Shown here: piece after piece, positions 10,685 to 24,600 of the stretch
How positions within the stretch are numbered: position 1 is the first letter of the stretch
Layout of the letters: each line of letters begins with the position of its first letter
Source: a virus
Lineage: Duplodnaviria > Caudoviricetes
Reading direction: 5' to 3' (one strand)
Virus record (IMG/VR): IMGVR_UViG_3300027732_000064
Coordinates: 1 to 36,046 of that record
Length of the DNA stretch: 36,046 nucleotides
The notes under the pieces: model-generated
Told to the model about the DNA's origin: nothing
What the model saw: only the letters and a program-made list of their open reading frames with translations
The model's database searches: none
Program-made: the position numbers and the translations under genes

Positions 10685-13252
10685 ATGGGACTACTTGACG
10701 AATTCTACGCACCTGACTACAGCAGACTAAAGCGCGGCCAGTTCAGGCAGGACACGCCAAAGATGCGCGAGTACGCTGCAAGCGCACCTGTTGATTTAGG
10801 GCGTGGAACGGTTGCTGGATTACTTGGTTTACTTAGCGATACTTTGAATTTTGCACCTGCCTATTCGCCAAAGCCAATGGAGCAGTTTGGTGATTTTGAC
10901 TATGCGCCATCGCAAAAGGTTCCATTCGGCTCTGAGGAGTTGCTTAAAACTCTTCCACTTGCACCGGCAGCAGATAACCCCGTAGGCAGGGCAGCAGGTC
11001 AGATAGGTACGTTTGCGCCGATGGTTCCAGTTCAAGCAGCACGTCTTGCAGGTCGCGGTGCTAAACAAGTAGGCAAGTTCGTTGCTCCCAAGGCTGGCCA
11101 GTTGGCAGAAAACTATATGCAAAGCATGGGGATGATGCCTGGGATTGTCTCTAAAGAGGGCGGCGGATTGCTTGGAGATGCGGCTGCTGTAGTTAGAACC
11201 CCAGAGGAACAATTGGTAATTGACAAATGGGGGCAAAAACAACTGCAAGAAAAAGCAAGAGCAAAAAAAGTTGAAAAGATGTCACTTGAAAGTGCTGGAT
11301 TAAGTCCAGAAGATCAGATTTCTACATTTAAGTCAAAAGGGAAAAGACAAAAAACAGATGCTGATTACTATCGGCAGATGGCAGAAAATTTAGGAGATGA
11401 GGCGGTACTGAAAAGTGCAACTCAGGGCCAACATTTAAAGCAAACAGCCGGAGGATATGTGGGTGCGCCTAGAACTGTAACCAGCGGCCAGGGATTGGGT
11501 GCAATGCGCCGCTCTATGGATGCTGACTTTAATGATGCCGTTGCTGCTGTTCGACTTGCAGATGAAAGCCGTTTAGGTACATGGTATGACCGAGCCAAGC
11601 AAGGAATTGCTGAAAGTTCAGAACCATATCAGTTAAACAGAACACTTGAACAGCATGGTGTTTATTCAGCCGGTGTAAGCCCAGAATCAGAATTAGGATT
11701 TGCATTAAAGCACTTAAACAGTCGCGTTGCTGGTACACCAGAAATGGCCTACCGAGGCGCACCAATGAGGAATTTGGATACTGCCGTAGCAGAAGGACTC
11801 CCAGCAAATATGGGTTTCAAGATTGGTGAGTACGCCAACAAGAACGACCCAAGGGTTCCTAACGCAGGATTATTTGGAGTAAACGATTTCCGTCGCGCCC
11901 AGGGTATGGGCTACACCGATCCGCAAGGCAACCCGTGGAAGGCTGGCGTGTCAGAGACTATGCACCCATTCATGGACGCTGAAACAGCGTTGCAAGTTGA
12001 CAGAGCAAACAAGTCAGCAGTTGGTGGAAGAGCCAACTGGGCCGGTCCTCAAATTCAGGAAGTTCCTTGGGTTTATGGGAAAGGTCAAGACCTATACAGT
12101 CGTGGATTAAATAGTCGATATGCGGGAGATGAATTAGAAGGTATCAAGCAAGCATTGCGTGATGCAAACAATACCGCCAGAGATTATTTCTACAAGCAAA
12201 CTGCATCTGCTACACATGAGGCGATACCTGGCGCAAGCACGGGTCATGTCCCGCAAATGATAGATGCTCCATTTGAACAAAAAATTGCTTACGGTAATAC
12301 TGGACGGTGGGATATGCCAGTTCCAGAATATGCTTTAAATGATATGGGAACTATTGGGGCTGGAAATAGAGATGCAATTTACAGTGCGCTAGGGTATCGG
12401 CAACTACCAACAATTCAGGCATCTGGTGCCTATTTTCCAGAAGGTTCTAAAATTGCAGAACATCAGCCCGTAAATATTGCACGGGTACTTGCTGATTTCC
12501 CAACAGGAGGTGGCGGTCTACTTTCCGATCCAACTCAGCAAACAATGAGTTTTGCAGAACGATTCCGCGCACTTAACGATGCGCAAGAGGCGTTTGGATT
12601 TAATTTACCCAACACAATGAACAGTGTTAAGGGTAAAAATTCATTAGTGCTTGATACTAGAGCATCAAACCCCATGAAACTTGACGAGCCATACACTGGA
12701 GTAATGCCAACAAGTACACAAATGGGTGCGCTCACTCAGGCCTTAAACGATACTGGTTATGGAATTTCTCCAACAAGTCGTGGGGCTACTGTATTCCCAT
12801 TTGATTCAAAATCTACCGCTGCTGATGTCAGAAAACTGATGAAAGAAAAAGGTGGGCTTCTACAAGAAATTTACCCATCCAACATGAAGCCATCTCTCAA
12901 TACATCAGGCTATGGACCAGGCGTTGGAACATACACACCAGAAGGATTTAAAGCCACTGAACCTTTCAGCGGAATGGCAACAATGGGTCTTCTTAAAGAG
13001 GCCTCATATTTACCTCCTAATGTGGCTTTGAATTTAGGGGAGTCTGAAAGCGTTAGAAATGCTATTAAGGCAAAGATGAACCGTGATGCGGCATTGCCAA
13101 ATGCAAGAGCCGACATTCAAGAATCACGTAGATTCTTTAGTGAGGCTGATTGGCCAAAAGCCGTAGAACTTATTCGCCAAGGTTATACCCCTGCGGCAGC
13201 ATTAGCAGCCCTTGGCTATTCAGCGTCCAGCATGGCTCAAGATCGACGTTGA
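10685..13252 (+). CDS. Large putative injected protein (855 aa): ejection-type N-terminus plus globular, possibly enzymatic, C-terminal region
   Basis: Last gene of the ejection cluster; repeated GLL motifs; becomes more AT-rich after about 11200. Confidence 0.65.
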   Translation: MGLLDEFYAPDYSRLKRGQFRQDTPKMREYAASAPVDLGRGTVAGLLGLLSDTLNFAPAYSPKPMEQFGDFDYAPSQKVPFGSEELLKTLPLAPAADNPVGRAAGQIGTFAPMVPVQAARLAGRGAKQVGKFVAPKAGQLAENYMQSMGMMPGIVSKEGGGLLGDAAAVVRTPEEQLVIDKWGQKQLQEKARAKKVEKMSLESAGLSPEDQISTFKSKGKRQKTDADYYRQMAENLGDEAVLKSATQGQHLKQTAGGYVGAPRTVTSGQGLGAMRRSMDADFNDAVAAVRLADESRLGTWYDRAKQGIAESSEPYQLNRTLEQHGVYSAGVSPESELGFALKHLNSRVAGTPEMAYRGAPMRNLDTAVAEGLPANMGFKIGEYANKNDPRVPNAGLFGVNDFRRAQGMGYTDPQGNPWKAGVSETMHPFMDAETALQVDRANKSAVGGRANWAGPQIQEVPWVYGKGQDLYSRGLNSRYAGDELEGIKQALRDANNTARDYFYKQTASATHEAIPGASTGHVPQMIDAPFEQKIAYGNTGRWDMPVPEYALNDMGTIGAGNRDAIYSALGYRQLPTIQASGAYFPEGSKIAEHQPVNIARVLADFPTGGGGLLSDPTQQTMSFAERFRALNDAQEAFGFNLPNTMNSVKGKNSLVLDTRASNPMKLDEPYTGVMPTSTQMGALTQALNDTGYGISPTSRGATVFPFDSKSTAADVRKLMKEKGGLLQEIYPSNMKPSLNTSGYGPGVGTYTPEGFKATEPFSGMATMGLLKEASYLPPNVALNLGESESVRNAIKAKMNRDAALPNARADIQESRRFFSEADWPKAVELIRQGYTPAAALAALGYSASSMAQDRR

Positions 13253-13455
13253 GTATTGCGCTTGTACCATGACTCAGCACCAAACGTTTGCGCCCTTCTA
13301 GCAGCAACTTCTTTGTTTGACAAAAGTTGTGGTGAACGCTCAAGTTCATGAACGTTGGCCAATAATTGTTGCATCAGTTCGGCGCACTCGTCAAAGTAAC
13401 TGCCTGGTTCAACGCTTTTTAAAAACTCAATTGCTTTGTCATACTTATCCATCAA
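13237..13455 (-). CDS. Hypothetical 72-aa protein, last gene of the leftward operon
   Basis: Coupled to the upstream stop (TTG 13455 or ATG 13452); overlaps the convergent 855-aa gene by 16 nt. Confidence 0.65.
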   Translation of the reverse strand: MMDKYDKAIEFLKSVEPGSYFDECAELMQQLLANVHELERSPQLLSNKEVAARRAQTFGAESWYKRNTQRRS

Positions 13456-13814
13456 TTACTCCCAAAGAACGCGGCCACCAACGGGTCGCGTTTGATCTTC
13501 CACTTCTTTGCGCGTTGCCTAGCCAAAGCAAAGGCGTGTTCCTCTACACCCTGACCATCACGGCACTTGCGTGAACGCTCCGCGCAGGGTACTGGCGGAG
13601 GCTTGACGGCATCTACCCCTATCCCGTAACGCCACATCGCTGCAATGCCTGCCTTCTGCCTTCTGTAGCCCTGTATGTGTATCAGCCCTGCCTTGCGCAA
13701 CTTCGTGATGATGATCTGGGTCCCGCGCAATCCGCAGTGGATTACCTTGGACAGTTCCGCTGATGTCATGGCCTTGGCCGTGATGAGTTCGATCACCCTG
13801 TCTCGCCTCTTCAT
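13452..13814 (-). CDS. Winged-HTH DNA-binding protein
   Basis: MTSAELSKVIHCGLRGTQIIITKLRKAGLIHI pattern; very basic. Confidence 0.65.
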   Translation of the reverse strand: MKRRDRVIELITAKAMTSAELSKVIHCGLRGTQIIITKLRKAGLIHIQGYRRQKAGIAAMWRYGIGVDAVKPPPVPCAERSRKCRDGQGVEEHAFALARQRAKKWKIKRDPLVAAFFGSN

Positions 13815-13924
13815 TTCCTAATCAGCCAGCAGTGCTGGCATATCCACCTGACTGGTGACATATCCACCCCACCATCGTGCGGCTTGGACTCCAAGCACTT
13901 GGCGCATATCTTGTACTGGCTCAT
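13811..13924 (-). CDS. 37-aa CxxC...CxxC zinc-finger microprotein
   Basis: Not in the track; MSQYKICAKCLESKPHDGGVDMSPVRWICQHCWLIRK; ATGA overlaps at both ends fill the gap exactly. Confidence 0.8.
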   Translation of the reverse strand: MSQYKICAKCLESKPHDGGVDMSPVRWICQHCWLIRK

Positions 13925-14289
13925 GCATTCTCCTGTGGTGGTGTGCAAGTGTGAATCACGGTGAGGTCTGCTGTGCGCTTACCGCAGCGTGAACAGAAGT
14001 TGCGCTCCTGCTCTGGTTCTTTGTAAATGTCCTTTGCCGTTAGATACTGAGTTACAACTTTGTCGTCTTCAAACCAAGTCTTCGTTCCAACCACAGGCTC
14101 TTGCTGTGCCAAGGCTGCTTTGACGGCGGTGATGGCTTTGTTTAACAGTTTGTTGTTTCCGTCAACATCAAAACAACCACTGTAATAGCCGTCCATTGCA
14201 CCTTCCAAACCAAAATGATTTCCTGTGCCATTTATTAAATTGTTGCTGCTTTCCAACGCCTCAAGCGCAAGTTTCAATGCTTCTTTCAT
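13921..14289 (-). CDS. Hypothetical early protein with C-terminal Cys/His motif
   Basis: EALKLALEALE start and RNFCSRCGKR...HTC; ATGA-coupled. Confidence 0.75.
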   Translation of the reverse strand: MKEALKLALEALESSNNLINGTGNHFGLEGAMDGYYSGCFDVDGNNKLLNKAITAVKAALAQQEPVVGTKTWFEDDKVVTQYLTAKDIYKEPEQERNFCSRCGKRTADLTVIHTCTPPQENA

Positions 14290-14498
14290 TCCACCACCTC
14301 CTGCTTGGCGGTCAATTGTTCCAAGCGTTTAATCCGTGCCACGTTGTAAGCAACGATGGCTGCGTGGTACTCCTGTGCCGATTGGTGGCGCAATTTGCTG
14401 CGCTGTGCGTGTATTAGTTCATCTGCCACTAACTCCGCAGGGGTTGGCATTACCCAATGGTTTGTAAACCATGCCCATACGTTTTTTAAGTGGTTCAT
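14286..14498 (-). CDS. Hypothetical early protein
   Basis: ATGA-coupled at both ends; GGAG SD. Confidence 0.75.
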   Translation of the reverse strand: MNHLKNVWAWFTNHWVMPTPAELVADELIHAQRSKLRHQSAQEYHAAIVAYNVARIKRLEQLTAKQEVVE

Positions 14499-14692
14499 TT
14501 AAAAATACTCCTTGCTAAAACTGTTTTGGTTGGCTCGCATTGCTTAGACTGTGCCTTGCTGTTGCTAAAGTACCCGATGGCAAAGCAGATGGCGGCAAAG
14601 ATGCCAACGCACTTTAGGAACGTCATAAGGTAGTCCCACATACGCTCGAACACGGTAGGCGTTTCTTCGTCTTCTACAAATTGAATCTTCAT
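14495..14692 (-). CDS. Small single-TM protein
   Basis: ATGA-coupled; hydrophobic CVGIFAAICFAIGYF. Confidence 0.7.
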   Translation of the reverse strand: MKIQFVEDEETPTVFERMWDYLMTFLKCVGIFAAICFAIGYFSNSKAQSKQCEPTKTVLARSIFK

Positions 14693-15159
14693 GGTGTTTT
14701 CTCCAAAATTACTCTTGCACGTTTCTTTTTAATTTCGCCAAGGACGATGTCCATAGCCTTCTCCATCGTGGCAATGGATGTCACCTCGACCTGGGCATCG
14801 TGTATCTCCATCCCAAGGTTGATGGCGTTCAGTTCTGAGGCTTTCAGCACAAACCGATACCCAGCATCCACACCACGCTTTGCGGCTGCGTATAGCGCGT
14901 CCTGGGCTGCCTTGATCTCATCCTTGTACTCTGACGCAACCCCAAGACGGCAGAGTGCCTCCATGATGTTGAATGCCTCAATGATGTAGTCGATGTCAAG
15001 GCGGGTGGCAACGCCACGTCTTAGGGCATCAATCGCGCTGTGGTTCTTGATCTGAACGTCCACGATGCCAGCCTCTGCCACCGGCTTTAAGCCGTTTAAG
15101 ACCCAAGCCAATGGGTCAGGCAGTTGCGGCTTTGGCCTGTACTTACTGCGCTTTCTCAC
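14689..15159 (-). CDS. Conserved hypothetical phage protein
   Basis: GTGA-coupled; MRKRSKYRPK start and helical body. Confidence 0.75.
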   Translation of the reverse strand: MRKRSKYRPKPQLPDPLAWVLNGLKPVAEAGIVDVQIKNHSAIDALRRGVATRLDIDYIIEAFNIMEALCRLGVASEYKDEIKAAQDALYAAAKRGVDAGYRFVLKASELNAINLGMEIHDAQVEVTSIATMEKAMDIVLGEIKKKRARVILEKTP

Positions 15160-15422
15160 TGCTGCAACCCAATGATCTCAAGTTCAAGTTCCTTGACCCT
15201 GTCCTTGTTACACTGGTTCTCGTACTCCATTTGGGCAAGGGCGCGGCCAGCGCGTTCCTTGACATCCTTCTCAGCGGCCAGCCACCCGACCAACGCGCCC
15301 TTCGAGGCTGCGCGTCTGACGATGTCTTGCACGTCACGGGCGGTGAGCAGTCCTGCGCTGCTTGGTGGTGGAGCCATCATCGCAACGATGGCATCAATCT
15401 CCTTTTGCATTGGCTCGCTCAT
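15156..15422 (-). CDS. Hypothetical early protein
   Basis: Likely start MSEPMQ at 15422, overlapping the upstream TGA. Confidence 0.7.
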   Translation of the reverse strand: MSEPMQKEIDAIVAMMAPPPSSAGLLTARDVQDIVRRAASKGALVGWLAAEKDVKERAGRALAQMEYENQCNKDRVKELELEIIGLQQ

Positions 15423-15502
15423 GATGACCACCACTGCACGAGTGACGCTGCCAATGCAACGCCGATGGCAACGGCCAGGGCGTAGTCCTTAAATGAATTC
15501 AT
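15419..15502 (-). CDS. 27-aa single-TM micropeptide
   Basis: Not in the track; MNSFKDYALAVAIGVALAASLVQWWSS; GGAG SD; stop overlaps the next ATG. Confidence 0.7.
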   Translation of the reverse strand: MNSFKDYALAVAIGVALAASLVQWWSS

Positions 15503-15647
15503 TTCGTACTCCATCGTTAAGTGAGCCAATGGCTCGGAGAAAACTATTTTGCTCTAATACCTGGCGACGCTCGATAGCCAGTTCGCGCATGAGTTGGGCA
15601 AGGTCTTCGACCTGCTCCGTGAGTTTTTGCTCTTCTTGTTCAGTCAT
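15489..15647 (-). CDS. 52-aa coiled-coil early protein
   Basis: ATG at 15647 with AAAGGA SD; MTEQEEQKLTEQVEDL... Confidence 0.7.
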   Translation of the reverse strand: MTEQEEQKLTEQVEDLAQLMRELAIERRQVLEQNSFLRAIGSLNDGVRNEFI

Positions 15648-15667
15648 CTTGTTTCCTTTCAGTTGCT

Positions 15668-15681
15668 GGGGCCGTAGCCCC
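15668..15681 (-). promoter_or_regulatory. Intercistronic hairpin with cUACGg tetraloop
   Basis: Minus strand reads GGGGC-TACG-GCCCC with no U tract, so more likely an mRNA stability/processing element than a terminator. Confidence 0.55.
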
Positions 15682-15687
15682 GTTGGG

Positions 15688-15876
15688 TTATTGGTAAGAC
15701 AAACCTTGAAACTCAAAAGAGTCTGCTAACTCTGGCGCAGCAGACTTGCGCACGTTAATGGAAATGCAAGCAAAACCATAACGCTCTGCAAGATATTCCA
15801 AAGCGTCTGGAGTGTTAGCCACTACCGTGATTTGGGTAGCATTGAAGTCTGCGGGAGAGAAAGTGAAATCGGTCAT
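15688..15876 (-). CDS. First early gene, hypothetical 62-aa acidic protein
   Basis: ATG at 15876 with strong AGGAGG SD; MTDFTFSPADF... Confidence 0.8.
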   Translation of the reverse strand: MTDFTFSPADFNATQITVVANTPDALEYLAERYGFACISINVRKSAAPELADSFEFQGLSYQ

Positions 15877-15919
15877 AAGACCTCCTAAAAATTGCCTTTC
15901 GGCGGTTGTTGATGGGTGA

Positions 15920-15948
15920 ATCATAATGCACATTGACTACTTCGTCAA
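15920..15948 (-). promoter_or_regulatory. Leftward sigma70 early promoter
   Basis: Minus strand TTGACG (15948-15943), 17 nt, TATGAT (15925-15920). Confidence 0.8.
15933..15948. promoter_or_regulatory. Palindromic operator overlapping the -35 box
   Basis: TTGAC-TACTTC-GTCAA; related copies at 15988, 18127 and 22153. Confidence 0.65.
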
Positions 15949-16026
15949 CTATTTATCTAGGTGTTTTCCCTAAGTGTTGCAAAATATTTGCATTTTTAGT
16001 CAACTAATCCGTTGTAAAATACCAGC

Positions 16027-16088
16027 GCGGGGTATTGTTTCCCCCGCAGTTGCCTTTGAGGGGGGAGTTCACGCTCTCCCCTTTTTTT
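16027..16088 (+). ncRNA. Putative small regulatory (antisense) RNA
   Basis: TAAAAT at 16015-16020, hairpin GCGGGG/CCCCGC (16027-16047), single-stranded linker, then a terminator; segments match the early-gene RBS regions. Confidence 0.5.
16058..16088 (+). terminator. Intrinsic terminator
   Basis: GGGGGGAG-TTCACG-CTCTCCCC followed by T7. Confidence 0.85.
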
Positions 16089-16096
16089 CTGTACAC

Positions 16097-16125
16097 TTGC
16101 GCTGTTCATCAACTTTAGTTTAACA
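16097..16125 (+). promoter_or_regulatory. Rightward sigma70 promoter for the Cro-like/replication operon
   Basis: TTGCGC (16097-16102), 17 nt, TAACAT (16120-16125). Confidence 0.55.
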
Positions 16126-16133
16126 TCGCAATC

Positions 16134-16373
16134 ATGGAAACTTCTACACAGCAAGCAATTAAGGCGATCCGAGATCGCGCAAAGTCGGCAGGGTTTCGGC
16201 TCTCCGACGTTGGCAGGGTTGCCAACATTGACCCAGCCCAACTCTCACGGTGGGCAACCGGCAAGACAGTTCCTTTGTACTCCAGCATCATTAAGTTGAA
16301 CGAGGCCGTTGACGCGCTGATCTCTGCACGGATGACGCAACTAGCGAAAGACATGGAAGAGGCCGTCAAGTGA
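16134..16373 (+). CDS. Cro/XRE-type HTH regulator
   Basis: LSDVGRVANIDPAQLSRWATGKTVP helix-turn-helix; first gene of the rightward operon. Confidence 0.85.
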   Translation: METSTQQAIKAIRDRAKSAGFRLSDVGRVANIDPAQLSRWATGKTVPLYSSIIKLNEAVDALISARMTQLAKDMEEAVK

Positions 16374-16843
16374 GGGTTATCAGTATCGACCCAGGACTCA
16401 GTGGAGCCGTCGCGCTGCACGTTGACGGGACACTTGAGTCCGTGACGGATATGCCGGTGGTCAGCATCATGCGCGGAAAGACTCAGAAACGTCAGGTATC
16501 AGCGCAGGGGCTGGCGACTCTCATCATTGATTTGAAGGCAGACCACGCAGTAATTGAGAAGGTGTCCGCAATGCCAGGTCAGGGAGTGAGTTCAATGTTT
16601 TCCTTTGGCCGCAGTGCTGGAGTGATTGAGGGAGTCTTGGCCGCGCTGATGGTTCCTCAGACCTTTGTGCAGCCGGCGGTGTGGACTAGAGCCATCACCC
16701 GTGGGATTGGCAAGGACGCATCCCGCAGCCGCGCAATGGAACTCTACCCATCGCATCAGAAAGAGTTTGCTCGCGCCAAGGACGATGGCAGGGCTGACGC
16801 TGTGCTGATCGGCTTTTGGTACTTGAGGGAGTTGACAAAGTGA
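16370..16843 (+). CDS. RuvC-like Holliday junction resolvase
   Basis: ISIDPGLSGA, VIEKV.AMPGQGVSSMFSFG and DGRADAVLI catalytic motifs. Confidence 0.88.
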   Translation: MRVISIDPGLSGAVALHVDGTLESVTDMPVVSIMRGKTQKRQVSAQGLATLIIDLKADHAVIEKVSAMPGQGVSSMFSFGRSAGVIEGVLAALMVPQTFVQPAVWTRAITRGIGKDASRSRAMELYPSHQKEFARAKDDGRADAVLIGFWYLRELTK

Positions 16844-17061
16844 CATCAGAAGAACTCAAAACAATGCGTGACCACATCATTTACCTTGGGACCCAGTTGG
16901 AGAACGAGCGTCACCAGTCGGGTCAGAAGACCGTCCTACTGAAACGGATGCTTGACCCTGAAGACTTGGGACACGCTGTCACCACCGAGGTGCGCAAGTT
17001 GGCTTACCAAATCCTTATCCATGACACGGACAACGAAAGAAAACAATGGAAAACAAAATAA
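16840..17061 (+). CDS. Hypothetical protein
   Basis: GTGA overlap at 16840 with GAGGGAG SD. Confidence 0.65.
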   Translation: MTSEELKTMRDHIIYLGTQLENERHQSGQKTVLLKRMLDPEDLGHAVTTEVRKLAYQILIHDTDNERKQWKTK

Positions 17062-18116
17062 TCCTACGGCCAAGTTCAGCATCCCGCTGGATCGCCTGCC
17101 CCGCATCTGTACGGCTCAGTGAAGGCGTACCTTACGAACCCGCTGGTGAGGCCGCGCAGATCGGTACTGCCATCCACGCCCTGGCCGAGAAGTGCTTTGC
17201 TACGGGCGAGAAGGCTGATGCCTACCTTGGCAAGCCTGTAGAGGGCATCACGATGACTCAAGAGAACGTGGACTTTGCCCAGGCTCACCTTGACCACATT
17301 ACAAATCTGAAATCTGAACTTGGGGCTGTAAAGGTCGAGCAGTACGTGACGGTCTTTGATACTCCCGCTGTGAAGTTGGGCGGGACTGCTGACGTGATCG
17401 GGTTTGGTAACGGCATCCTTGAGATCGCAGACCTGAAGACGGGACGCGGGTACGTGGATGCAGACAGCAGTCAGATGAAGATTTACGCGCTGGGTACGCT
17501 GGCCAAGATCAAGAGTAAGCCTGTGGAGACTGTCAGGCTGTCCATCATCCAGCCGCACTCAGGCGATACACGTACACACATCATGACGGTGGATGAGTTG
17601 AACAGTTGGAAGGTTGACGTGCTGCTGCCTGCCATCGCTGAGTCTGCCAACATGGACGCGCAGCCAAAGCCATCTAGTAACGCCTGCCGTTACTGTCCTG
17701 CCAAGGTTATCTGTCCCGCGCAGACTAAGGCGTTGGAACTGATACCCGTCAAGTTGGATGTCAAGACCCTTGCGCCTGAAGTGGTCAGCGACCTGCTGGC
17801 TCGGTCTGAGATGGTCGAGGACTTCATCGCGGCACTACGCAAACACGCCACCAAGGTCTTGGAAGACGGCGGTGTCCTGTCAGGCTGGCAACTGTCGCCC
17901 AAACGCGCAACGCGCAAGTGGATTGATGAGGCGGCAGCCGTAGTCGCGCTGGAGGCTGCGGGTATCGAACACAGCAAACTCATGCTTACTGAGATCATTT
18001 CCCCTGCGGTGGCAGAGAAACTGCTAGGTAAGGAAAAGAAACACGTCCTTGAGGACATCACCAAAAAAGAAAGTTCAGGATTAACGCTTGCCAAAGCGGT
18101 TGGACTTGGACAATAA
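17046..18116 (+). CDS. Cas4-like PD-(D/E)XK exonuclease (DUF2800 type)
   Basis: SSASRWIACP, GTAIHALAE, GTAD, DLKTG, Q.KIYALG and CRYCPAKVIC motifs. Confidence 0.88.
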   Translation: MENKIILRPSSASRWIACPASVRLSEGVPYEPAGEAAQIGTAIHALAEKCFATGEKADAYLGKPVEGITMTQENVDFAQAHLDHITNLKSELGAVKVEQYVTVFDTPAVKLGGTADVIGFGNGILEIADLKTGRGYVDADSSQMKIYALGTLAKIKSKPVETVRLSIIQPHSGDTRTHIMTVDELNSWKVDVLLPAIAESANMDAQPKPSSNACRYCPAKVICPAQTKALELIPVKLDVKTLAPEVVSDLLARSEMVEDFIAALRKHATKVLEDGGVLSGWQLSPKRATRKWIDEAAAVVALEAAGIEHSKLMLTEIISPAVAEKLLGKEKKHVLEDITKKESSGLTLAKAVGLGQ

Positions 18117-18126
18117 TCACCTCCCC

Positions 18127-18142
18127 GTGACTACTTAGTCAC
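18127..18142. promoter_or_regulatory. Palindromic operator upstream of the SSB-like gene
   Basis: GTGACTA-CT-TAGTCAC with perfect 7-bp arms, in a 49-bp intergenic gap. Confidence 0.65.
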
Positions 18143-18165
18143 ATAACCTTGAAAGCAAAACGCAA

Positions 18166-18729
18166 ATGCTAAATCTCTCATCCTCCGGCGGCTCTGGTAA
18201 CTACATCCGTTTCTCACCCCAAGCCAACGCTTGGACAAACTCAAACAACGAAGAAATCCAGTTAAAAAAAGTCGTTTTCGACATCGACAACGTGCAGACT
18301 GGTTGGCTCCTGCTGGCCGTTGGTCAGCGCGAGTGGAACCCTGATGTGGCACTCGGTAAGAAGGGTCCGCAGCCAACGCCTGAACACAAGCGCGGGTTCA
18401 TGGTCACGCTGTACAACAAGGAGATCGGCGCAGCCGAGTGGTCTAGCAACGGAGTCGGACCCAACATGGGCTTGGAGCAGTTGTACAAGACCTGCGACGC
18501 GCAACGCGCTGCAAACCCTGGAAAGTTGCCGGTGGTTGAGTACAAGGGTTCCAAGTTGGAGAAGATCGGCAAGGGTACGACTCGCATCCCCAACTTTGAG
18601 TTGGTGTCGTGGGTAGCGCGTCCCGAAGGAATGGACGCTGTGGCGGCTCCTGTTGAGCAAGCACCTCAGCCAGTGCGTCAAGCACCGGCGAAGGCGGCTG
18701 TAGTGGAAGACGAAGACGAGATGTTCTAA
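18166..18729 (+). CDS. Putative single-stranded DNA-binding protein
   Basis: Lies between exonuclease and primase; beta-rich core, Pro/Ala linker and acidic EDEDEMF tail. Confidence 0.65.
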   Translation: MLNLSSSGGSGNYIRFSPQANAWTNSNNEEIQLKKVVFDIDNVQTGWLLLAVGQREWNPDVALGKKGPQPTPEHKRGFMVTLYNKEIGAAEWSSNGVGPNMGLEQLYKTCDAQRAANPGKLPVVEYKGSKLEKIGKGTTRIPNFELVSWVARPEGMDAVAAPVEQAPQPVRQAPAKAAVVEDEDEMF

Positions 18730-21729: not shown

Positions 21730-22164
21730 ATGGCTGGTAGACCGAAACGTAAGGAGGACTTGATTAAATTGGATCAAATTCCGCAGGAACAGATCATCGT
21801 GATGCTGGAGGAGGGCAAGTCGATTACGCGGGTATGTATGGCGTTAGGCGTGGGTCGGACGGCCATGAATGCGTGGTTAAGCAAGCCAGAGAACGTAGAA
21901 TTGGTCTCGCGTGCGCGTGTGAGGGCGGCTGATCTGATGGTCTCCGATGCGCTGGACATCGCCGACTCAGCGTCCATCGAGGAGGTCAACCTGGCTAAGT
22001 TACGCATCCAAACGCGCCATTGGACGGCTGAGAGGTGGAATGCACCTGCTTACGCGCAGCAGAAGGGTCAGCAGGTCAGCATCAACATCCAAGGGATGCG
22101 CATGGATGCACTGCGCCACGTCGAGGTGCTGGAGGACTTATCCACACCCAAATTGTCCACTTAG
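21730..22164 (+). CDS. terS: Terminase small subunit (Sf6 gp1-like)
   Basis: N-terminal HTH, RAR...AD......LDIAD and AKLRIQTR.W.A.R..P..Y; upstream of TerL. Confidence 0.85.
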   Translation: MAGRPKRKEDLIKLDQIPQEQIIVMLEEGKSITRVCMALGVGRTAMNAWLSKPENVELVSRARVRAADLMVSDALDIADSASIEEVNLAKLRIQTRHWTAERWNAPAYAQQKGQQVSINIQGMRMDALRHVEVLEDLSTPKLST

Positions 22165-22227
22165 TCACATTAACCTGTGCATAAGTACCATACGACCACA
22201 CAATCCATGTATAACCTGTGCGTAAGT
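22138..22227. promoter_or_regulatory. Cluster of DnaA-box-like 9-mers and 16-bp direct repeats
   Basis: TTATCCACA at 22138; TGTGCATAA at 22176; TGTGCGTAA at 22217; TAACCTGTGCRTAAGT at 22171 and 22212. Confidence 0.55.
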
Positions 22228-24115: not shown

Positions 24116-24600
24116 TGGCAACACAACCAAGCCGCAGCGTCCCGTCACGCTACAAGGGTGCGATGGATCAGATGATGAAGGAAGACACTGACACATCAAA
24201 CTGTCCACTTCCCACGCAAGACATCACCCTAAATCTCAAGAACCGAGCCAAGGCGATCACCACAGCAGCCTACGGTCCTGAGAACCCCAAACTACCAAAC
24301 GAGGCTTACTGGAAGCGGATGGCCGACGAGTGGGACGTGTCTGCCGAGGAAGCAAAGCAAAGCCGTTGCGGGAACTGCGCGGCGTTCAACGTATCCGACT
24401 CAATCAAGCAGTGCATTGCTGACGGCATCGGCAACGACGCTGACCCCGCTGATGTCGTCAAGTTGGCCGACCTTGGCTACTGCGAAATCTTTGACTTCAA
24501 GTGCGCGGCAAGCCGCAGTTGCCGTGCGTGGGTTGTTGGCGGCCCCAACACCGGCGAGGCCAAGGATGAAGACGAAGAGATGGAGCGAGAAACAAATTGA
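24115..24600 (+). CDS. Cys-rich putative metal-binding protein
   Basis: RCGNCAAF...GYC...DFKC...RSCRAW. Confidence 0.75.
   Translation: MATQPSRSVPSRYKGAMDQMMKEDTDTSNCPLPTQDITLNLKNRAKAITTAAYGPENPKLPNEAYWKRMADEWDVSAEEAKQSRCGNCAAFNVSDSIKQCIADGIGNDADPADVVKLADLGYCEIFDFKCAASRSCRAWVVGGPNTGEAKDEDEEMERETN

Follow-up and report, generated by a model that had tools for sequence, protein, structure and literature searches.

What the small RNA predicted between the two divergent operons of this phage is directed at was the question raised by the locus. The window, that is, the whole 36,046-base phage record that was analyzed, encodes capsid, portal, terminase, primase, exonuclease and resolvase proteins, and the RNA unit has the early operon, read leftward, on one side and the cro-resolvase-exonuclease-primase operon, read rightward, on the other. 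An earlier note, made from the sequence, had proposed an antisense RNA aimed at the ribosome-binding sites of the first two early genes, in a phage with no recognisable CI. The last point was borne out by a scan of 54 ORFs against PHROGs, in which neither a CI-type repressor nor an integrase was found. No annotated phage matched positions 13200-18200 of the window at the DNA level.

The predicted RNA is about 63 nt long (16026-16088, plus strand; 5' end placed from the -10 box), in agreement with the earlier estimate of about 60 nt. Its -10 box TAAAAT (16015-16020) is followed by hairpin 1 (16027-16047; GCGGGG/CCCCGC, loop TATTGTTTC, with a U-rich variable loop at 16033-16041), the seed CGCAGUUGCC (16045-16054) and an intrinsic terminator (16058-16088; stem 16058-16083, T-run to 16088), and all positions first given for box, hairpin, linker and terminator checked. 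The 63-nt strand folded at -30.2 kcal/mol (z -4.1), with 1 of 200 shuffles equally good, and the plus strand was more stable than the minus strand in 86 of 92 distinct sequences. Across these 92 sequences UUGCC was unpaired with a probability of 0.85-0.97. The claim that the pairing segments are mostly unpaired needs one correction: two bases, the final C of TTGTTTCC and the C that opens CAGTTGC, belong to the stem.

No -35 consensus accompanies the -10 box: the RNA promoter was absent from the promoter-scan list of the window, and its -35 position formed no consensus-like column across relatives, as had been suspected from the single sequence. Among 96 distinct upstream regions, the -10 hexamers were TAAACT (36), TACAAT (33), TAAAAT (19), TAGAAT (6) and TAAGAT (2); the script accepted these five plus TATAAT, and such a box was present in 190 of 191 seed-bearing loci. 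That the unit has a -10 box and a terminator to itself speaks for a primary transcript rather than release by RNase P. In the assembled contigs of 8 RNA runs (13 were listed; contigs cannot show RNA ends), one piece touched the unit, a 181-nt contig that includes the promoter and is possibly DNA, and in a freshwater library (X1) pieces were present at 99-100% identity. GCAGTTGCC occurs 3 times in the window against 0.61 expected; the two further copies (1516-1524 and 24515-24523) lie inside ORFs, lack terminators and are probably due to chance.

Relatives were fetched with the Cro-like helix-turn-helix protein as anchor (16134-16373, plus strand, 79 aa; HTH_3 E=2e-4, under the Pfam cut-off), taking the best 80 of 332 and the best 80 of 248 matches, which overlap, with a query alignment built partly from motif-found loci. 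From the 160 loci fetched, 147 had at least 150 nt upstream, giving 102 distinct upstream regions. The -10 box, hairpin, seed and terminator stood ahead of cro in 74 of these, 3 had kept hairpins and terminator and lost the seed, and 25 had no unit (the RNA-less sister clade comprises 24-25 distinct loci). Unit length ranged from 58 to 98 nt over all 229 usable loci, the 90-98-nt forms having three tandem hairpins. In 15 aligned members 98.6% of cells paired and 6 of 15 pairs showed double-sided changes (hairpin 1: 5 pairs with 100% of cells paired and double-sided change in 2; terminator: 10 pairs with 97.9% and double-sided change in 4), so that the covariation suggested as a check was found. 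The covariation score was reached by 0 of 500 shuffles and slid controls dropped to 41-66%, in a test where the structure was drawn from the very alignment tested and the sequences are related.

Seed variants among the 74 loci were CAGTTGCC (67), TAGTTGCC (6) and CAGTCGCC (1); the core GCAGUUGCC barely changes, and the loops are clade-specific and U-rich. With a covariance model, each RNA-bearing genome gave a single strong match and the two RNA-less genomes searched gave no such match. The seed also recurs directly before a terminator in other phage contexts, with other promoters, 5' parts and neighbors (ParB-like, DUF5856 and others); at least seven architectures were counted by eye among 76 distinct seed-terminator contexts, a few of which are probably chance, and about 340 stretches are estimated to carry one strict seed-terminator pattern. 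Rfam returned 0 gathering matches in the window, 20 phage loci and 10 host loci (only sub-threshold matches at E<=10), which so far upholds the earlier description of the RNA as possibly undescribed. No description of the phage RNA, or of the host lepA-leader RNA treated below, was found in the literature; the scope was mostly open access, with uncurated motif catalogues outside it, so the novelty is provisional. The Burkholderiales-1 motif was considered and is unrelated to the unit. Taken as a whole, the comparisons support a small-RNA unit that is discrete, conserved and apparently undescribed, and whose mode of action would be short base pairing. Upstream of cro in L349, L473 and L479, three-hairpin units keep promoter and terminator and have the seed replaced, perhaps through a change of target or through decay. 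On a 2.9-kb contig of a MAG titled Bdellovibrio lies a phage-type copy together with its cro (L285:1471-1534), likely a misbinned phage piece.

The surroundings of the unit bear on how it might be controlled. The leftward early promoter (TTGACG-17-TATGAT, 15920-15948, minus strand) carries over its -35 box a perfect palindrome, TTGAC-N6-GTCAA (15933-15948), the sole match without mismatch in the window, and this is a putative operator of the Cro-like protein. An imperfect copy (15988-16003; 2 mismatches, alone not significant) straddles the -35 position of the RNA promoter; its GTCAA half is kept in relatives, and it may likewise be an operator. A separate cro promoter is predicted after the terminator (TTGCGC-18-TAACAT, 16097-16126, plus strand, giving a leaderless mRNA), with a -35 box reading TTGACG or TTGACC in most relatives, and cro therefore need not rely on terminator read-through. 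The cro ATG lies 7 nt after this -10 box, and leaderless translation is apparent throughout the RNA-bearing clades (16097-16134 in the window); in the RNA-less clade cro has a short leader with a Shine-Dalgarno (SD) sequence, and its sole promoter candidate is at the position of the RNA promoter (GTCAA, then TAGAAT). Right after the terminator, a -10-like hexamer (TACACT/TAAACT/TATACT; 16092-16097) is kept in most relatives, and TTCACG in the terminator loop, 18 nt upstream of it, could form a further promoter or a pause signal. Palindromes GTGAC-N6-GTCAC (18127-18142) and TTGTC-N6-GTCAC (22153-22168) lie just upstream of ORFs at 18166 and 22177 and are possible further operators.

Early gene 1 (15688-15876, minus strand, 62 aa) is a module that has been swapped; its promoter and leader have their homologues in the RNA-less clade, and L364 shares both gene 1 and the leader with the window. 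By comparison with L364, the window is a recombinant, since the left half of its intergenic region (15877-16005) and gene 1 derive from the RNA-less clade. The match once proposed at this gene exists, TTGCCTTT occurring at 15892 and 16050, but gene 1 was rejected as a target because it is weak: the matching segment sits in a leader hairpin (GCC-GAAA-GGC, 15892-15905, minus strand) with a ddG of -5.4 against -9.1 for gene 2, and a homologue of the hairpin is present in phages without such an RNA. At the position of the match, most RNAs of the window clade read TTGCCTTC.

The match at early gene 2 (15489-15647, minus strand, 52 aa, no family match) fared better. The RNA reads TTGTTTCC-cccg-CAGTTGC at 16035-16053 and the plus strand reads TTGTTTCC-ttt-CAGTTGC at 15649-15666, both as first reported, and this two-box pattern occurred exactly 2 times in the window against 0.00 expected (100 shuffles). 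On the minus-strand mRNA the site GCAACUG-AAA-GGAAACAA covers the SD sequence and spacer of gene 2 (cofold ddG -9.1) and is a possible secondary target. Ahead of it lies a UNCG-type hairpin (15668-15681, minus strand), and hairpin and site form the constant part of an early-gene cassette repeat, with up to three such leaders per genome (e.g. L022). The pattern GCAA(C/T)T-N2-5-GGAAA was present in 18 of 18 non-redundant loci of the window clade, whichever gene fills the cassette, in the single locus L104 (1/1) and in 0 of 95 other loci. When the loop of each RNA was used, a two-box match of at least 8 nt was found in 19 of 90 cognate RNA/phage pairs, compared with 5 of 4548 non-cognate ones. 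L104, with a 10-nt loop match and a seed box at its first gene, belongs to another Cro clade, which makes two independent cases. As an observation in its own right, the early genes look like exchangeable cassettes, each opened by a UNCG hairpin and a constant ribosome-binding site (window 15649-15690; L022:5400-5800), with 1-3 cassettes per genome in the window clade and gene content that varies between close relatives.

These matches could mean that the main role of the RNA is to silence the early operon of its own phage, or to set its timing, through C4-like two-box pairing at early ribosome-binding sites, and the regularity within the window clade, the case of L104, the low non-cognate rate and a 5' domain in the window clade that adds nothing to host pairing (see below) all speak for it. 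Against it, 71 of 90 RNA-bearing loci have no two-box site of their own and keep the seed nonetheless; the class-level energy test of loop against early leader was not significant (p=0.16; p=0.61 without the two matching classes), although the covariation windows of at most 14 nt under-score two-box pairing; gene 2 ranked 6th of 58 own starts by cofolding with the window RNA; some leaders of the clade have lost one box (L026, L421); and GCAAC-rich leaders are common upstream of SD sequences generally. Whole or near-whole genomes of other clades showed no consistent own target, own-genome targets in 23 further phage records (rough codon-score gene calling) gave no consistent site, and the exact two-box pattern in viral contigs gave only close relatives and chance matches. 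Control of the own early operon as the main purpose is consequently judged unlikely. What stands of the original proposal is a clade-specific match at gene-2-type sites, with boxes and targets agreeing in the window clade and L104; the family-wide co-variation and purpose that it implied were not supported. Since the site is absent from the 71 other loci, it can be at most a lineage-specific second target, and from complementarity we tentatively assign the gene-2-type site a secondary, clade-specific function, at somewhat under an even chance. A seed that is kept without own targets needs another explanation.

A pattern search of 301 genomes of the family containing the Limnohabitans MAG G027 brought up a recurring element with the same seed; the family label Comamonadaceae was taken from the titles of its member genomes (Limnohabitans/Variovorax family). 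The host unit lies after mucD/degP and just before lepA, in the order TACAAT, CCAAC, GCAGTTGCC, TTGTTGG, terminator, and its promoter, like that of the phage RNA, has no -35 consensus. It was present in 9 of 17 lepA leaders obtained (20 genomes asked), namely in Variovorax, Ramlibacter, Acidovorax, Hydrogenophaga, Rubrivivax, Thiomonas and three family-level genomes, and absent from those of Cupriavidus, Gallionellaceae, Rhodocyclaceae, Accumulibacter, Sulfuritalea, Pseudomonas and two other Burkholderiales. By a strict pattern, a single copy was found in 118 of 151 family genomes, with 0 control matches. An order-wide search with a host model gave 2 strong matches in 121 genomes, both family members, which is weak evidence of absence elsewhere as 37 candidates were scored per genome. 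A pattern scan of GTDB contigs (14 of 64 parts, 120 rows) returned mostly chance matches and the phage-type copy on the 2.9-kb MAG contig mentioned above; it missed the host unit because the host spacer is longer. In the fold of the host unit the seed lies in or near a loop; the consensus fold instead prefers a weak alternative that pairs the seed. Examples at L535:1485-1555 and L603:1398-1463 show the conserved lepA-leader unit, which is itself a candidate for a host sRNA or an attenuator. Some 60-150 nt ahead of this unit, between mucD/degP and lepA, L534-L563 carry a conserved GTTGC-N6-GCAAC palindrome, and they also carry a cluster of 9-mers that we take to be DnaA-box-like; the region may be the replication origin in part of the family.

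The position before lepA invites a reading in cis, in which the motif is part of a leader-terminator acting by attenuation or antitermination on the downstream gene, lepA in the host and cro or packaging genes in the phages. No second promoter or SD sequence was seen between the host terminator and lepA, and in one phage type only 12-14 nt separate the terminator from the start of a ParB-like gene, both of which suit this reading; however, cro has its own predicted promoter beyond the terminator, other Betaproteobacteria have a lepA-leader hairpin without the motif, and the fixed synonymous codons and joint loss described below are left unexplained. A purely cis role is very unlikely on this evidence, and cis and trans roles could coexist in the host unit. 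The palindrome upstream of the host unit, the missing -35 box and the lack of a visible transcript in the contigs of the RNA runs (which cannot show ends) would fit still another case, that GTTGC is a protein-binding half-site on DNA, or a silent remnant, and the rest merely a terminator. This is highly improbable, given that added hairpins place the seed anywhere between about 15 and 55 nt from the -10 box, that the stems covary and that G-U pairs favor a plus-strand RNA.

The seed pointed to a target in trans, in that GCAGUUGCCAU is the reverse complement of AUG GCA ACU GC. In 5 of the 5 genomes first asked, two genes start with AUG GCA ACU GC and continue AAG AAR, and such MATAKK genes belong to three Pfam families, HC2 (histone H1-like), SWIB and Bac_DNA_binding (HU-family); 1 of 8 tested had no Pfam match. 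The exact complementary start (ATGGCAACTGC-type) was found in 136 of 151 family genomes, with 0 control matches. In a codon-degenerate search with 198 MATAKK rows, GCA ACT GC was exact in 130 of the 150 listed (hand count; 129 of 149 omitting the unpublished G176), compared with 14 of 53 in the remainder of the order (genomes outside the family sample, one row being the unpublished G471). Other SD-led Met-Ala-Thr starts in 5 family genomes were exact in 2 of 100 cases, or in 5 of 103 when three MATA[K/A]K genes are counted as well. A search for the seed complement ahead of host start codons gave no target that recurred among the rows listed; the reversed-pattern control was an unfair one there.

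Host RNA and exact site tended to occur together. By hand cross-tabulation of 151 genomes, 114 had both, 4 the RNA only, 22 the site only and 11 neither (odds ratio 14, p=9e-6, a value inflated by incomplete genomes and shared ancestry). In all 4 inspected genomes with only drifted starts (G107, G149, G158, G167) the seed was missing at lepA, and of these G107 still had the promoter and the terminator. Six inspected genomes with an exact start carried the seed there. Outside the family, 0 of 5 inspected genomes had the lepA-leader seed, yet G515 and G559 had an exact start.

The window RNA pairs over 9-10 nt at +3 to +12 of MATAKK mRNAs (G GCA ACU GCG), with a median cofold energy of -11.4 kcal/mol over 36 MATAKK starts vs. 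-3.7 for 138 host starts of other kinds, among which 6 equalled the median target; three host RNAs gave -9.6 to -13.6. Perfect stretches between 92 phage RNAs and host starts were 8-15 nt long, reaching 13-15 nt in the three-hairpin clade, and in 46 of 59 distinct 5' domains pairing was better to codons 4-11 of MATAKK genes than to other starts. The window clade is among the exceptions (-10.4 vs. -10.1), which fits its loop having moved onto own leaders. In most type-A phage RNAs the seed ends in UU, so that only 8-10 nt pair and the A and U of AUG are missed. This missing AU pairing, together with the display of the motif unpaired beside a terminator in every context, would be expected if the phage RNA were a decoy that mimics the host lepA-leader RNA and titrates a partner that recognises GCAGUUGCC, either a sponge RNA or a protein (chaperone, nuclease or regulator), the MATAKK complementarity then being a matter of the host RNA only. 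A decoy is quite unlikely, because the 5' domains of the phage RNAs tend to continue the pairing on these mRNAs and because stretches of the length seen in the three-hairpin clade are needless for a pure protein decoy.

The explanation that we favor, and hold to be probable, is that the RNA core, which complements the first codons of Comamonadaceae HC2, SWIB and HU-like genes, pairs there as part of the predicted 63-nt RNA and blocks translation in the presumed host. Seed invariance is better explained by such a host target, which was out of the earlier note's view. The phages likely copy a host regulator, the lepA-leader unit with the same seed, to turn nucleoid proteins down. These statements are to be read with the facts that the host target was found after the fact, that genomes and phages share ancestry and are not independent, and that incomplete MAGs inflate joint absence. 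The assignment of Comamonadaceae-type bacteria as likely host rests on the seed itself: no cultured relative of the phage was found by homology, no close Cro was present in 401 family genomes, and capsid matches reached only 35-44%, in 4 of 301 family genomes.

Under the favored explanation, host RNA polymerase would make the RNA early, from a -35-less promoter resembling that of the host unit, and the Cro-like protein may modulate this at the TTGAC-N6-GTCAA sites. The unpaired AGUUGCC would nucleate on G GCA ACU, and pairing would then run on by 2-3 pairs into the base of the stem; additional pairing of hairpin 1 with Lys/Pro/Ala codons would be possible in most clades. That sRNAs pairing within the first codons block initiation is well established, and it has been shown for IhtA; here, 30S loading would be blocked and synthesis of nucleoid proteins would drop, repression being assumed by analogy. 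With fewer nucleoid proteins, phage DNA may stay open for transcription and replication; if nucleoid proteins are very stable, stopping their translation may have little effect within a short infection. Only in the window clade, the loop would instead have come to match the own early-cassette ribosome-binding sites, and may damp early genes as the RNA accumulates. The fuller account, in which several unrelated freshwater phage lineages independently copied the seed of a lepA-leader Comamonadaceae RNA that controls a three-gene nucleoid regulon via a shared codon-level site, use it to lower H1-like, SWIB and HU-like proteins, and in the window clade also rewired the RNA onto own early ribosome-binding sites, is given just short of an even chance.

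By analogy, the best reading is a seed mimic that would block translation of host nucleoid proteins, working like IhtA and HnrS. In Chlamydia, the stem-loop RNA IhtA, which has a terminator, represses the histone-like HctA by 7-nt G/C-rich pairing around the AUG, and the first codons of its target are unusually conserved, the first 31 nt being identical across species (PMC4355289). The phage RNA is alike in that its seed also complements the start region of histone-like protein mRNAs, the likeness being one of complementarity only. It differs in that IhtA, in the part of the source available, is chromosomal, 107 nt long, with three stem-loops and an ACGCCAU-type seed site (CAUGGCG) in a loop, and targets Hc1 instead of HC2, SWIB and HU (PMC4355289). 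Between IhtA and the phage RNA no sequence or Rfam similarity was found, nor was a phage copy of IhtA.

HnrS is a 66-nt sRNA of an EHEC prophage that represses translation of the host nucleoid-associated protein Hha by seed pairing, and is described as the first phage sRNA shown to counter xenogeneic silencing (PMC13502914). Both are short phage-encoded RNAs complementing a nucleoid-protein mRNA, here by complementarity only and with a presumed host. In none of the tests made did the RNA of the window prove homologous to HnrS or to IhtA. Unlike the RNA of the window, HnrS pairs at the hha ribosome-binding site, in a prophage and virulence context, and the consulted portion of that report mentions no host RNA with the same seed (PMC13502914); the window has no detected integrase, and its predicted targets are HC2, SWIB and HU-family proteins, not the H-NS-system silencer Hha. 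VpdS of VP882 and PreS of lambda are phage sRNAs that target host mRNAs or compete for Hfq with sRNAs of the host; they have other targets and hosts, and no seed common to a host RNA is described for them in the part of the source at hand (PMC12197685).

An analogy with C4 and CI RNAs had been drawn at the outset, and as membership it failed. C4 of P1/P7 has three stems at a junction, is cut by RNase P from a precursor and has a specificity loop that changes with the target (PMC5320573, PMC2864571, as far as these sources were available). The window-clade RNA resembles it in two short boxes that could pair over and upstream of a ribosome-binding site in its own early mRNA, whereas the phage unit has two tandem hairpins, its own promoter and terminator, and an invariant box that points to host mRNA. 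Two-box own pairing that changes with the target, as in C4, was found in 19 of 90 loci (two lineages) and not in 71, and membership in RF01695 was ruled out by the lack of an Rfam match and by two (or three) tandem hairpins without a junction. Burkholderia double-hairpin or toxic sRNAs (RF02278) have CU-rich anti-SD seeds and 3-5 chromosomal copies, and share with the unit a length of about 60 nt, two hairpins, pyrimidine-rich unpaired parts and a betaproteobacterial setting (PMC5688073, in the part available). Membership in RF02278 was also rejected, with no match at gathering or at E<=10 and one copy per phage or host genome. UCUCC loops occur in some phage clades.

The analysis puts forward two apparently undescribed RNAs, one of phages and one of the host, and a shared target site in genes of little-known role outside Chlamydia. 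If true, phages without a detected integrase would mimic a host regulator at the RNA level, the H1-like, SWIB and HU proteins of abundant freshwater bacteria would be a barrier that restricts the growth of phages, and a terminator preceded by the 9-nt seed would serve as a sequence marker of the host family for hundreds of uncultured phage contigs.

Some minor observations concern possible additional pairing. In HC2 leaders (L634, L642, L676) a hairpin of CUCUUUG with CAAGGAG hides the SD sequence, and many have GCAACU in the loop, a possible second seed site. Phage clades with UCUCC loops may have a second, anti-SD site. In hairpin 1 of L093, L105 and L152, UGGUUUUCUCC is an 11-nt complement of the SD-spacer region in one host HC2 leader (GGAGAAAACCA).
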